A DNA stretch of 38,300 nucleotides from a virus, in UHGV virus genome UHGV-0186551. One strand, given 5' to 3'. Both the position numbers and the translations under genes were made by a program. The notes beneath the pieces were generated by a model. The model had not been told where the DNA came from. It saw only the letters and a list, made by a program, of their open reading frames with translations, and searched no databases. Shown piece by piece: positions 28,808 to 34,455 of the stretch. Positions within the stretch are counted from its first letter, which is position 1; the number at the start of each line of letters is the position of its first letter.

Positions 28808-29524
28808 ATGGAAAATAAAAAATCACTGACGACAGAACAGCTCGAAGACGCTAAGCGGCTTAAGGCTTTGTATGAGTCAAAAAAGAAAGAATTGGGAATA
28901 ACCCAATACTCAATCGCTGATGAACTGGGTATCACCCAAGGAGCGGTAGGGCATTATCTTAATGGCAGAAACGCGCTAAACGTTGAGGTTGCATCTGGTT
29001 TTGCACGATTGTTGCAAGTCTCAATTGCTGATTTTAGCCAGTCAATTGCTGCCAAGGTTGCAGAACAGGCAGAAAGCCTTAAGAGCGATGCCAACGTAAG
29101 GTATGCAGGGGAATACAGAGCAGGAAAGAGGTATCCGGTGTTAAGCAGTATCCAGGCTGGCTCGTGGTGTGAAGCATGCGAACCATACACCATTAAAGAC
29201 ATAGATGTTTGGCTTGAGTCTGACGCGCATATTCAAGGTAATGCGTTCTGGCTTAAAGTGGAAGGTGATTCAATGACGGCACCGGTTGGGTTAAGCATTC
29301 CAGAGGGAACATTCGTTCTTTTCGATACCGGAAGGGAGGCGATCAACGGCAGCTTGGTCATAGCAAAACTTTCTGACTCTAACGAAGCAACATTCAAGAA
29401 GCTGATAATCGACGGCGGAAATAAATACCTCAAGGGACTTAATCCTGCATGGCCTCTCGTGCCAATCAATGGAAACTGCAAGATTATAGGCGTTGCAATT
29501 GAGACAAAACTAAGGCTGGTTTGA
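28808..29524 (+). CDS. cI: CI repressor (N-terminal helix-turn-helix, C-terminal S24 LexA-like autocleavage domain)
   Basis: 238 aa; LTTEQLEDAKRLKALYESKKKELG... and AFWL.VEGDSMTAP as in lambda CI. Confidence 0.9.
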   Translation: MENKKSLTTEQLEDAKRLKALYESKKKELGITQYSIADELGITQGAVGHYLNGRNALNVEVASGFARLLQVSIADFSQSIAAKVAEQAESLKSDANVRYAGEYRAGKRYPVLSSIQAGSWCEACEPYTIKDIDVWLESDAHIQGNAFWLKVEGDSMTAPVGLSIPEGTFVLFDTGREAINGSLVIAKLSDSNEATFKKLIIDGGNKYLKGLNPAWPLVPINGNCKIIGVAIETKLRLV

Positions 29525-29541
29525 TCACGCAAGGGGCGATT

Positions 29542-29910
29542 ATGGTTGGAACCGCTATAGCAAGCTTTTTGGGGATGTTGGCAATCTCAACAATTTACGG
29601 CTTAGCGCATGCTTTTATTGCGAAATCTCTATCAGAAAAAATAAGCCAGGCTTGGGCGCATAGATCTGCTCGTTTCATGATTCTAGTGGTCATAGCAATA
29701 CAAGGGATATCTGCATTTATCCTCTATGGATCAAGCTTATACCTGTTGTATCAAGGCGCGACATTTACGCCTTACACCAGTGATTACGGAACTCTATACG
29801 ATGGTAGTGAAGACATCTCTATGGCTTGGATCGTCTTTGGTTTATCTATGGCCGTGTCTGTTGTAGCAGACATCATTAAGGTAATTCTCGTCTTAACCTT
29901 CGCTGACTAA
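29542..29910 (+). CDS. Multi-pass membrane protein co-transcribed with cI (rex-position cargo)
   Basis: ATG at 29542 with AAGGGG ribosome-binding site, 18 nt after cI stop; about four hydrophobic segments; track start 29521. Confidence 0.7.
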   Translation: MVGTAIASFLGMLAISTIYGLAHAFIAKSLSEKISQAWAHRSARFMILVVIAIQGISAFILYGSSLYLLYQGATFTPYTSDYGTLYDGSEDISMAWIVFGLSMAVSVVADIIKVILVLTFAD

Positions 29911-29999
29911 CCCATAATCCCGGCAGCAATAGCTATCGGGATCCACTTCACATATCCCGCATAAAAAGCACTGAACAAGCAGACACCGAAAAAAAATAA

Positions 30000-30085
30000 A
30001 TATCCTTTGTATTCATTTGCTTATCATTATTTCACCAAAAATAAATACCTTGGGTATTTACACAATAAAATACCTACAGTATTCT
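30000..30085 (+). promoter_or_regulatory. oL/pL: operators atatcctttgtattc (30000..30014), aataccttgggtatt (30044..30058), aatacctacagtatt (30069..30083); pL -35 TTTACA 30057..30062, -10 TATTCT 30080..30085
   Basis: Same operator consensus as oR; promoter geometry mirrors pR. Confidence 0.65.
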
Positions 30086-30130
30086 TTAGCCATCAGCAGG
30101 ACGCTGATAGCCAAACGGAACAGATTGGCA

Positions 30131-30171
30131 GGCTCTTTAACATTGATGGGATTGTCCCGCCGAAATGCGGG
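30131..30171 (+). promoter_or_regulatory. nutL (boxA ggctctttaa, boxB cccgccgaaatgcggg)
   Basis: boxA followed after a 16-nt spacer by the same boxB hairpin as nutR, upstream of N. Confidence 0.75.
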
Positions 30172-30279
30172 AACCAAAGAGTAGTTGGCTTTGGGGTGAC
30201 GTGAAGTTCAGCTGCACGACGGCAACCGGAAGATAAGCACCCGGCGCGTCACCGCCAAAGTCAATCATCGGAGGTCAAC

Positions 30280-30552
30280 ATGGCAGTAGTCATTACATTT
30301 CTGGCTGACGATAACGCCAGAAATCGCCGCAGAGCACGCAGACAGGCTCAACGTGAGCAGGCAATGCAAGAACAGCGACTGGCGCGAAAAATTGCGCTAA
30401 AGCTCTCTGGTTGCGTCAGAGCAGACAAAGCAGCATCACTCGGAAGCCTTCGCTTCAAGAAGGCAGATGAATGGAGTGGAAGTATTTGCCTGCCAAACGT
30501 AGCCATTTACGCGGCAGGCTACCGGAAATCAAAACAACTGACGGCGAGGTAA
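30280..30552 (+). CDS. N: Antiterminator N (arginine-rich-motif type)
   Basis: 90 aa; ARNRRRARRQAQREQ motif; first gene after pL/nutL; GGAGG ribosome-binding site. Confidence 0.8.
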   Translation: MAVVITFLADDNARNRRRARRQAQREQAMQEQRLARKIALKLSGCVRADKAASLGSLRFKKADEWSGSICLPNVAIYAAGYRKSKQLTAR

Positions 30553-30554
30553 TT

Positions 30555-30917
30555 ATGGGTCAGGAAGAAAAATATGAGCTTAAAAAGCTAATTGGAGAAG
30601 ACGCCATAGAAGAAATTGCAGCATTAACAACAGCTATAAAGAATATTAGGTATGCGCTAAATACGCTTATCTCCTCATGCGACAAAAATAGCAGGGAATT
30701 TTTGATACTTGGCGCAGCTCTAGGAATAGTTGATGCGGCAACGCTTCACCTAATTACTCATGACGATATTCTTATTGAGCCGTATGAAACATTACTGCTT
30801 GTCAGGCAAAAAATGGCTGATGCCGCAGCAAATGGAGACCTTCAACTTTACATCGACTTAAGGAAAGTATTAAGGCGAATGGTCAGAACTGAAGGAGATA
30901 TCCCCCTGACAAAATAA
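30555..30917 (+). CDS. Hypothetical protein, 120 aa (Ral-position accessory gene)
   Basis: ATG 3 nt after N stop with GAGG ribosome-binding site; track ORF 30471..30917 trimmed. Confidence 0.65.
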   Translation: MGQEEKYELKKLIGEDAIEEIAALTTAIKNIRYALNTLISSCDKNSREFLILGAALGIVDAATLHLITHDDILIEPYETLLLVRQKMADAAANGDLQLYIDLRKVLRRMVRTEGDIPLTK

Positions 30918-31100
30918 GGGGGTGAGAGGATTTTACTATTTTTCTCGCTGTAGGGGTACACGAGAACCACCGAGCCTGATGTGGTTAAAAGACAGGCACA
31001 ATCTTTACTACCGCAAGCCACGCAGTGAAATGGGCGTGACATGCTCAGGCCGCCAGAAGCAACGCGGAAAATCAATTCCAGCTTATTACGATTGAGGTTA

Positions 31101-31370
31101 ATGATGAAGTTCAAATTGAACGATGAAGTTAAATGGTCAAGCTCATCAAACGGTGTAACGAAGGTAAAAATCGGGTTTATCGTCGAGGTGATTCCTCCTG
31201 GTGTCAACGTAAAAAAATTCGAACTAGGCCGTCTGCTAGATGCACCTGGCCTTCCGAGGAAAGAAGAGAGCTATATAGTTTGTGTAGGTCCAAGACCCGG
31301 ATCTCGAGCCAAGCCAAAATATTACTGGCCGCGAGTTAATAACCTGCGTCACTTACACGATGACAAATAG
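31101..31370 (+). CDS. Hypothetical protein, 89 aa
   Basis: ATG at 31101 preceded by GAGGT; track ORF 31041..31370 trimmed. Confidence 0.55.
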   Translation: MMKFKLNDEVKWSSSSNGVTKVKIGFIVEVIPPGVNVKKFELGRLLDAPGLPRKEESYIVCVGPRPGSRAKPKYYWPRVNNLRHLHDDK

Positions 31371-31425
31371 AAGTGGATGTCATTGTTTTACTTTTTCGCA
31401 GCAAACCACTTATTTGAGGTGAGAT

Positions 31426-31896
31426 ATGACAAAATCATGGAGCGTACCTTTTCCTGAATCAGAAACTGAACATGATGGAATGCCTGTTTTCTGGAGATTC
31501 CAAGCAACAGTTGAAGAAGATGGAATCAAAATATTCGCACTTCAATATATAGCTTTTCATCAGACAGAGCATTATGCATGGTTGGTTCCTGCGCATTGGA
31601 TTGTTAATTTTAAACCAGCACCAAATCAGTGGTTACAGGAATGGAAACAAAATAGAAATAGATATGCAATTAAGAAAGTAGCAAAAAATGCAGAAAGATC
31701 TTTTGCGTTCCCGACGAAGAAACTTGCCATTGAAAGTTTATTGCGCCGGAAGAAATACCATTTGATGAGAATCAAACAAGATTTGGCTGTTGTATCAACT
31801 CTTGTTGATGGGATGAAGAATATTGATACATCAACACCAGATATTGAATATAACTTTGGACACAACCAAGAAACAGAAAATTGGGTGTTTTATTAG
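31426..31896 (+). CDS. Hypothetical protein, 156 aa, AT-rich accessory gene
   Basis: GAGGTGAG ribosome-binding site; AT-rich composition; followed by a 9-bp-stem hairpin at 31911..31938. Confidence 0.7.
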   Translation: MTKSWSVPFPESETEHDGMPVFWRFQATVEEDGIKIFALQYIAFHQTEHYAWLVPAHWIVNFKPAPNQWLQEWKQNRNRYAIKKVAKNAERSFAFPTKKLAIESLLRRKKYHLMRIKQDLAVVSTLVDGMKNIDTSTPDIEYNFGHNQETENWVFY

Positions 31897-32000
31897 TATG
31901 AATAAGCACTGTGTATTCATTCCAACGAGTGAATACACGGAGCAATGTCGCTCGTAACTAAACAGGAGCCGACTTGTTCTGATTATTGGAAGTCTTCTTT

Positions 32001-32026
32001 GCCCTCCAGTGTGAGGGCCTTTTTAT
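32001..32026 (+). terminator. Rho-independent terminator in the pL operon
   Basis: gccctc cagtgt gagggc hairpin followed by ctttttat. Confidence 0.6.
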
Positions 32027-32090
32027 ATGCATACCAATAACGCTTCACTCGAGGCGTTTTCGTTATGCAATCAAATATAAGGAGTTACCC

Positions 32091-32225
32091 ATGATGCACT
32101 TTCAGCTCGCGGGTAGCGGCGTCATGTCCGCTTTCTACCCGCACGAATCTGAATTATCACGCCGAGTTAAACAATTAATTAGAGCAGCAAAGAAACAACT
32201 GGAGGCGTTATGCGCAATGAAATAG
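32091..32225 (+). CDS. CIII-like small protein (putative FtsH inhibitor)
   Basis: 44 aa; AAGGAG ribosome-binding site; pattern ...AG...ES.LSRR..QL resembles lambda CIII. Confidence 0.5.
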   Translation: MMHFQLAGSGVMSAFYPHESELSRRVKQLIRAAKKQLEALCAMK

Positions 32226-32362
32226 CCATTAATCACCAGATGCTTCGTGCGGCACAAAACAAAGCAGTAATAGCCAGATTTATTGGTGATTCAAAAATGT
32301 GGATTGAAGCAAATAAAGCGATGAAATCAGCTATCAACCTTCCGTGGTATCGCAGGAAATGA
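32210..32362 (+). CDS. Kil-like small protein, 50 aa
   Basis: Hand-translated; GGAGG ribosome-binding site; position after the cIII-like gene; resemblance to lambda Kil only vaguely recalled. Confidence 0.4.
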   Translation: MRNEIAINHQMLRAAQNKAVIARFIGDSKMWIEANKAMKSAINLPWYRRK

Positions 32363-32443
32363 GTTTTACAGATAACTGGTCAGACGAAGAATTCATTCGT
32401 CAGATGAACAAAATGCTCAATCAGCACAAAAAACAGGAGAAAG

Positions 32444-32755
32444 ATGATGATTCTGACTCTGAATGATAAGCGTGAAATATCGCAAATCATCGCAAGTTTT
32501 ACTGATGAAGATTACGAACGAATCAACAGTGAAGTTGATCGCCTCTGCAAACGTTGCGACCCAATAAGCGAAATGCTTCGCTCATATAAACCAGATGAAC
32601 ACACTAAGGACGCTATCGACTGGCTGGAAGATGATGACTGTGACTATCAGGAAAAAGCCGCTGAATGGTTCTGGGATGCAATAACCGAAAGAGTTAAGGC
32701 TGAATATGCCTTCTCAATATTCAAACGCAGACACATTTTTGGAGAAGCTGCATGA
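32444..32755 (+). CDS. Hypothetical acidic protein, 103 aa, directly upstream of recT
   Basis: Strong AGGAG ribosome-binding site; stop overlaps recT start. Confidence 0.7.
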   Translation: MMILTLNDKREISQIIASFTDEDYERINSEVDRLCKRCDPISEMLRSYKPDEHTKDAIDWLEDDDCDYQEKAAEWFWDAITERVKAEYAFSIFKRRHIFGEAA

Positions 32756-34140: not shown

Positions 34141-34455
34141 ATGAAAAAGACTCCATGGGAGAAATGGGAAGTCGATTTCTTGCGCGAGGTAGCGGCGACA
34201 ATGCCAGTTGAAGTTATCGCAGAAAAACTGGAAAGGACTGAAAAAGCAGTAATGGCGAAAGCAACAAGGATTGGAGCTGACATTGTTAGCCGACTTCGTG
34301 GAAGACGCTGGACAAGAGCCGAAGTATCACTTTTCGGTAAGTTCTCCGCAGAAGAAATAGCAATTGCAACCTGCCGCTCAATTTATTCAGTAAGAGCTAT
34401 GCGATACAAGCTAAAAAAACTCGATGAAGAAAGAGCAGGCATACAAATAAATTAA
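34141..34455 (+). CDS. Hypothetical protein, 104 aa, two internal Trp-containing repeats (possible DNA-binding)
   Basis: ORF track; repeat pattern seen in translation. Confidence 0.6.
   Translation: MKKTPWEKWEVDFLREVAATMPVEVIAEKLERTEKAVMAKATRIGADIVSRLRGRRWTRAEVSLFGKFSAEEIAIATCRSIYSVRAMRYKLKKLDEERAGIQIN

Follow-up and report, generated by a model that had tools for sequence, protein, structure and literature searches.

Three uncharacterised single-gene cassettes between N and the tL2A boundary sequence of a P22-like Escherichia coli prophage are candidates for early, host-directed functions

The UHGV virus genome UHGV-0186551, whose full 38,300 nucleotides (nt) we refer to as the window, is a P22-like (Lederbergvirus-type) Escherichia coli prophage of the HK620/CUS-3/Kapi1 type. 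Its early left (pL) operon carries three open reading frames (ORFs) of 120, 89 and 156 residues between the antitermination gene N and the genes cIII and kil, here called ORF1 (30555-30917), ORF2 (31101-31370) and ORF3 (31426-31896), all of them on the + strand. A first-pass annotation of this DNA had listed three genes of these lengths immediately after N, and all three are present. Judged by sequence comparison, they are real genes, with conserved homologues in every case and purifying selection acting on ORF2 and ORF3, and they are independently acquired, mutually unrelated accessory cassettes in an exchangeable slot, each amounting to approximately a ribosome-binding site plus a reading frame. 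Our favoured reading, to which we assign a probability of roughly 0.45, is that the three would encode counter-defence or host-conditioning proteins, made early and directed at the host, by analogy with other occupants of the same slot. ORF3 is the strongest candidate because it belongs to a family found only in phages, because that family spans temperate and non-lambdoid phages, and because it has a confidently predicted fold without any solved relative.

Results

The anatomy of the interval was mapped by blastn against HK620, phi367, a Shiga toxin 1a (Stx1a) phage, an O26 prophage and lambda, supplemented by megablast. From 30555 to 30929 the window has the sequence of HK620 through the gene hkaQ, beyond which it lacks exactly the convergent hkaP cassette of HK620, a putative exclusion gene that contains the terminator tL1; in HK620, hkaP is flanked by imperfect direct repeats of ~12 base pairs (bp), and the junction falls between them. 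The 183-bp spacer between ORF1 and ORF2 (30918-31100) is a patchwork of relics. One of them, at 30919-30998, is the upstream flank of hkaP, left as an orphan in the absence of that gene and now pointing antisense into the end of ORF1. Overlapping it is an 81-bp segment (30941-31021) that is 98.8% identical to the intergenic region between ral and sieB of lambda (34373-34453 in that genome) and occurs in more than 100 lambdoid and P22-like phages; this segment is probably a second linker or boundary sequence. The third relic, at 31003-31095, is the 3′ stub of an N gene of the Sf6/lambda type, matched by megablast to the 3′ ends of the N genes of Sf6, SfI and mEpX1 and labelled by the Prokaryotic Genome Annotation Pipeline (PGAP) as a pseudogene, ‘regulator, missing N-terminus’. 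An intact Sf6-type N precedes ORF2 by 8 bp in Cronobacter prophages and, since ORF2 lies here behind the stub of the same N type, it was imported together with a piece of its native N. The ORF3 cassette (31399-31905, + strand) consists of 27 bp upstream with the ribosome-binding site, the reading frame itself and 9 bp past the stop codon. Its edges are common to phi367, O26 prophages and an Stx1a phage, and what precedes it varies: Ral in phi367, hkaP in O26 prophages, and N directly in HK97 and 933W.

We then surveyed the interval in 120 viral contigs from IMG/VR that contain the boundary motif, which yielded 85 distinct N-to-boundary intervals of 220-1858 bp, compared with 1353 bp in the window. 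Ral is the commonest occupant (38 of the 85 intervals), followed by ORF3 (14), a 207-residue protein (13) that is probably an Nmad5-domain protein, as seen at another locus, SieB-type genes on the opposite strand (12), relatives of Sf6 gp34 (11) and of Sf6 gp36 (8), and several other cassettes. The first-pass description of a variable hotspot is borne out by these counts; its comparison with lambda, said to carry ral, sieB and ea10 here, is right for ral and sieB, which lie in the homologous interval, but not for ea10, which lies beyond the boundary sequence. Ral accompanies ORF3 in none of the 14 ORF3 intervals and is found in 38 of the 71 others (Fisher p = 1.6e-4), a test that treats as independent a set of intervals that are not.

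The right edge of the slot is a boundary sequence of about 115 bp (31906-32018, + strand) that comprises a hairpin and the terminator tL2A. An alignment of the window, Sf6, HK620, lambda and phi367 shows it to be near-invariant; it lies downstream of ral in lambda, is recorded as ‘bsq4; boundary sequence’ in Sf6, and is present in at least 120 viral contigs. The hairpin (31906-31943) has a 14-bp stem (31909-31922 paired with 31927-31940) and a stability of -22 kcal/mol (z = -5.0). It has no T-run according to the terminator scan, and an Rfam search of 29900-32400, which includes it, recovered no RNA family. A hairpin with a 9-bp stem had earlier been attributed to the end of ORF3. The structure is real and stronger than described but, because it lies inside the near-invariant boundary sequence, it belongs to the backbone, where it delimits the exchangeable slot on the right, and is not a terminator of ORF3. 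The terminators proper, both on the + strand, are tL2A at 32001-32018, identified by the terminator scan, and tL2B at 32039-32058, identified by the same scan and by the HK620 annotation. Such strong conservation beside a hypervariable slot suggests that the boundary sequence has a function beyond that of a recombination linker, for example, as an RNA processing site.

The arrangement of signals bears on when the three genes would be expressed. A promoter scan found no sigma-70-like site upstream of ORF2 or ORF3; the only match to the promoter consensus on the + strand of the interval falls inside ORF1 (30702-30730), and the scan as a whole yields fewer sites than shuffled sequence. No intrinsic terminator was detected by the terminator scan between N and tL2A (32001), and neither the stem-loop after ORF1 nor the spacer between ORF2 and ORF3 folds better than shuffled sequence. 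Because tL1 has gone with the hkaP cassette and no intrinsic terminator precedes tL2A, N and ORF1-3 should share an N-independent, immediate-early pL transcript. Synthesis of the three proteins would accompany that of N as soon as infection or induction begins, and cI would keep their genes silent in the lysogen. In lysogens of the related phage Kapi1, the Ral-like gene, cIII and kil were all without detectable expression by RNA sequencing (PMC12922286).

ORF3, with an isoelectric point (pI) of 8.8, is a member of the HK97 gp45 family and matches phrog_1636, a family of ‘unknown function’, over its entire length (positions 1-156 of 156, E 1.3e-111). As the first-pass annotation had noted, it is AT-rich, with a GC content of 35.9% (27.6% at third codon positions) against 47.3% for the window, and has its own strong ribosome-binding site, GAGGTGA at 31416-31422; the low GC content points to horizontal acquisition. 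Over its full length the protein shares 98.7% identity with HK97 gp45 and 99.4% with 933W ST933Wp19 and phi24B vb_24B_11c, and it is also encoded by H-19B (as an unannotated ORF), BP-4795, Min27, and many Stx1a and Stx2a phages. Carriers make up 598 of 5426 complete E. coli genomes (11%), with up to 4 copies per genome. Homologues form 33 clusters across the Enterobacterales, with 40 invariant residues, and the ratio of nonsynonymous to synonymous substitution rates (dN/dS) of 0.03-0.07 indicates strong purifying selection. Sf6 gp34, which occupies the same last position before the boundary, was considered as a relative of ORF3 and rejected on an hhalign probability of 0.1%.

A profile search of 1.84 billion representative proteins found 87 relatives and revealed a broad family of proteins of 130-155 residues with the consensus ‘...YR..E.G....ET.C...K..K..RFAF.TK..A..SL..RK..QL.HLK...’. 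The 74 members that were aligned match phrog_1636, phrog_13631 and phrog_25384, and none of them has an assignment in Pfam, NCBIfam or PADLOC. Distant relatives are encoded in arrays of small early genes, some beside genes for RecT/YqaJ, RecE or a DNA methyltransferase. No partner gene is conserved among them, and a search for domain fusions found no informative one. The arrays include those of unrelated, non-lambdoid phages, for example, a Vibrio phage and Pantoea phage LIET2. A homologue from Pectobacterium is encoded immediately upstream of xis-int. The ends of ORF3 are acidic and its centre is strongly basic (17 Lys/Arg versus 5 Asp/Glu in residues 56-131), and it has no hydrophobic segment.

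Structure prediction was carried out for ORF3 alone of the three. An AlphaFold2 model based on close homologues only reached a mean predicted local distance difference test score (pLDDT) of 62 and was discarded, whereas the deeper alignment of 74 sequences gave a pLDDT of 95.8 and a predicted template modelling score of 0.83. In the latter model, three long antiparallel strands (residues 19-55) are followed by two short helices, a short strand and a helix of 33 residues (98-130), after which comes a conserved C-terminal tail, ‘FGHN.ET..W.F’. A search with this model found no fold relative among PDB structures, and the predicted fold is apparently new and unlike any solved structure; it recurs in Erwinia phage phiEa2809 and in Rhizobium and Cellulophaga phages.

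ORF1 is the homologue of HK620 HkaQ (99% identity), whose gene likewise begins 2 nt behind this N allele. Its ATG lies 2 nt past the N stop codon, with GAGG 5 nt upstream, and a homologue with 64% identity has the same Met as its first residue, which confirms the start at 30555. A 148-residue version given in some databases was rejected as an over-extension into N. The protein matches phrog_7374 (‘unknown function’) over its full length (1-120 of 120, E 1.2e-79), but the family is sparse: 5 protein clusters were found among 5.8 billion proteins, one of them being the intact 64% homologue, and 96 of the 5426 complete E. coli genomes carry it. Too few differences separate the sequences for dN/dS to be computed. 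ORF1 has a GC content of 40%, a pI of 5.2 and a net charge of about -4, and it contains a conserved hydrophobic 19-residue segment (residues 49-67; Kyte-Doolittle 19-residue maximum 2.03), which may be a membrane helix, so that the protein may act at the membrane. It is always found behind the same C-terminal segment of N with the 2-nt spacing, including in the prophage with the 64%-identical version. A prophage in which the N-terminal two-thirds of N are unrelated shares hkaQ and the final ~25 residues of N (compared over window positions 30508-30881), which places a recombination joint inside N. This movement of the C-terminal ~25 residues with hkaQ follows the same pattern as the mosaic junctions reviewed for the N-analogue gene 24 of P22-like phages (PMC8022706).

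ORF2 has a pI of 9.9, comprises 88 residues if read from the ATG at 31104, and has a ribosome-binding site, GAGG, at 31094-31097. It matches phrog_11941 (‘unknown function’) at profile positions 1-87 of 88 (E 1.3e-45). Its 31 homologues are 60-94% identical to it and share an invariant C-terminal motif, AKPKYYWPR, and the dN/dS of 0.07-0.17 again indicates strong purifying selection. The gene was found in 50 of the 5426 complete E. coli genomes, and a tblastn search of 50,697 phage records returned no match. In one E. coli prophage an Nmad5 gene sits between N and the ORF2 homologue. The N-terminus of ORF2 could possibly form a small beta-barrel, a suggestion that comes from Tudor and KOW matches in the profile search; these were all below threshold (four and two homologues, best E 0.023) and were not relied on. 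We also observed that RefSeq/PGAP leaves ORF2 unannotated in E. coli genomes with an identical copy, despite the strong purifying selection on the gene.

None of the three proteins has a characterised relative, as the first-pass annotation had supposed. Searches of Pfam (E up to 1), NCBIfam, PADLOC and the sequences in the PDB gave no significant match for ORF1-3, profile searches with ORF2 and ORF3 likewise gave none, and the PADLOC-DB defence profiles matched neither ORF1-3 nor the 74 aligned members of the ORF3 family. Remote homology searches and, for ORF3, structure prediction, which that annotation had proposed as checks, made no assignment to a known housekeeping phage family. A literature search on hkaQ, HK97 gp45, the locus tags, the accessions and the PHROG identifiers found no functional study of any of the three, and peptide strings from ORF1-3 did not occur in the supplements of one phage accessory-gene screen.

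The surrounding sequence identifies the prophage and completes the operon. The structural half of the window is 95-97% identical to CUS-3, Kapi1 and similar phages across 52-65% of its length, its immunity and pL region shares 97.8% identity with HK620 as far as the end of hkaQ, and 29900-32400 is 100% identical to a prophage of E. coli WP3-W18-ESBL-08. In the pL operon region, cI lies at 28808-29524, and the + strand carries the pL promoter at 30057-30085 (TTTACA-17-TATTCT in the promoter scan), nutL at about 30129-30170 (within the pL/nutL region annotated in HK620, 97.8% identical) and the 90-residue N antiterminator at 30280-30552 (Pfam N_peptide, E 2.7e-15; phrog_271; homologue of HK620 N). 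The end of the variable interval is marked by cIII (32091-32225, +; Pfam cIII, E 7.8e-30) and kil (32210-32362, +; Pfam Lambda_Kil, E 1.9e-19). Two further genes of the region are uncharacterised. Directly after cI, at the position of lambda rexB, an hkaS-like protein of 122-129 residues with hydrophobic segments (29521-29910; phrog_6534, ‘unknown function’) is a candidate for a membrane protein expressed from the prophage, and between kil and recT the pL operon encodes an acidic protein of 103 residues (32444-32755; phrog_3486, ‘unknown function’). According to a review, most genes in the early left operons of P22-like phages have no known function (PMC8022706).

Discussion

The three genes share an operon and a slot with Ral, and the role that we tentatively propose for their products is modelled on it. 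As small proteins in which catalytic signatures are absent, they would bind a host macromolecule and act stoichiometrically, and, like Ral, they would counteract a barrier set up by the host or otherwise prepare the cell for the phage that is entering it. Of the three, ORF2 and ORF3 appear to be soluble proteins of basic to neutral character. A host-directed role of this kind is favoured over exclusion by the prophage because ORF1-3 are predicted to be early, together with N, and silent in the lysogen. Under a bolder version, which is possible if doubtful, ORF3 would be the founder of a new and widespread counter-defence family with a previously unseen fold. As an immediate-early product made with N, it would substitute functionally for Ral in phages of the lambdoid and Shiga-toxin groups, for instance by inhibiting a restriction or abortive-infection system that is widespread among E. 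coli; ORF1 and ORF2 would be rarer inhibitors with other targets.

Several points weigh against the host-directed reading. Homology ties none of ORF1-3 to restriction alleviation or to a defence system, the argument being drawn from position, timing and analogy, and since the same operon encodes the developmental regulators cIII and kil, position alone does not imply counter-defence. None of the proteins is strongly acidic in the manner of the DNA-mimic anti-restriction proteins, their pI values being 5.2, 9.9 and 8.8. The mutual exclusion of ORF3 and Ral in the survey is confounded by shared ancestry and by competition for one physical slot, and both phi367 and phi296 hold the two genes together. 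Finally, Rho-dependent termination or RNA processing could occur between N and tL2A.

The same features can be read differently. The genes might serve the development of the phage itself, in antitermination, the lysis-lysogeny decision, replication or recombination, like their neighbours N, cIII, kil and the recombination genes, with ORF1 perhaps an accessory factor of N. The joint movement of the N C-terminus and hkaQ at a constant 2-nt spacing, maintained even in the 64%-diverged prophage, would be expected of such a factor; the position of ORF2 8 bp behind N in Cronobacter prophages and that of ORF3 directly behind N in HK97 and 933W are of the same kind, the basic centre of ORF3 would fit nucleic-acid binding, and some of its distant relatives lie near RecT/YqaJ or RecE genes. 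However, each of the three is optional: Ral or nothing stands in its place in most phages that have the same N alleles, and core developmental functions are seldom exchanged so freely. Moreover, Pfam, profile and fold searches found no DNA- or RNA-binding domain signature, and we regard developmental roles as rather unlikely. The relic patchwork between ORF1 and ORF2, with its truncated N, and the omission of ORF2 by PGAP from identical genomes could even suggest that the ORFs are decaying, non-functional remnants in a junk-rich recombination hotspot. This is very improbable in view of the intact homologues across genera, dN/dS values of 0.03-0.17, many invariant residues, a confident ORF3 model and proper ribosome-binding sites on all three, and it is effectively refuted for ORF2 and ORF3.

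The proposal in the first-pass annotation that one or more of the genes might provide exclusion, which can be taken as superinfection exclusion or extended to anti-phage defence of the lysogen, fared less well. In other phages the interval does hold lambda sieB and the sieB-like hkaP (the latter annotated only as putative exclusion), ORF1 has a conserved hydrophobic helix that would perhaps make it membrane-associated like many exclusion proteins, and low GC content is typical of morons. Against this, lambda sieB and hkaP lie on the opposite strand, whereas ORF1-3 follow N directly on the pL strand, which would put them under cI repression; the scan detected no promoter-like site ahead of ORF2 or of ORF3, and only 27 bp of the ORF3 cassette precede its reading frame. 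The corresponding operon segment is silent in the lysogen of the related phage Kapi1 (PMC12922286). The ORF3 family extends to phages outside the lambdoid group, and PADLOC gave no matches. Exclusion on behalf of the lysogen is therefore unlikely, and appreciably more so than a developmental role; for ORF1, an exclusion function early in the lytic phase, like that of T4 Imm and Sp, is possible.

Comparison with known systems separates what is shared from what is particular to this prophage. HK97 gp45, 933W ST933Wp19 and phi24B vb_24B_11c are the same gene as ORF3, likewise placed in the pL operon between N and the boundary with tL2A, and differ in the combination of cassettes, ORF3 following ORF2 here and, in HK97 and 933W, following N directly. 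HkaQ in HK620 is likewise the counterpart of ORF1 but is followed there by the convergent hkaP with tL1, which is absent here. Lambda Ral (PF11058), the restriction alleviation protein, shares with ORF1-3 the pL-operon slot and the character of a small early protein. It is, however, a Cys-rich protein of 66 residues without sequence similarity to any of them, and ORF3, at 156 residues, has another predicted architecture; in keeping with this, the PF11058 profile was not matched by ORF1-3 in the Pfam search (E up to 1), and Ral and ORF3 formed separate clusters in the interval survey. SieB and HkaP are encoded in the same N-to-boundary interval but, apart from their opposite orientation, differ from ORF1-3 in that the latter are co-oriented with pL, promoterless and without Pfam or PHROG similarity to them. 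A moron is a gene with its own promoter and terminator that is expressed from the prophage. ORF3 resembles morons such as HK97 gp15 in being a low-GC, horizontally acquired single gene between backbone genes, but its cassette, like those of ORF1 and ORF2, has neither a promoter nor a terminator of its own. Among solved anti-defence proteins (Ocr, ArdA, Tad1/2, Acb1/2, Gam, Abc2, Dsad1 and others), no chain showed sequence similarity to ORF1-3 or, for ORF3, similarity of fold.

In sequence, none of the three proteins is new, all having been catalogued as hypothetical proteins under hkaQ, phrog_11941 and HK97 gp45/933W p19. What is new is the confidently predicted and apparently novel fold of ORF3 together with the breadth of its family, the anatomy of the cassettes and their boundary, and the argument about expression. 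ORF3 is present in 933W-type Stx2 phages, Stx1 phages, HK97 and the prophages of about one in nine complete E. coli genomes. If ORF1-3 were to prove accessory genes of the usual kind, without a phenotype, they would be routine phage dark matter in a known hotspot; if ORF3 does disable a host defence, it would represent a new anti-defence fold and would help to account for how Shiga-toxin phages spread and which hosts they infect. The slot between N and tL2A, with its defined right boundary and its single-gene cassettes, could be mined systematically for more candidate early effectors.

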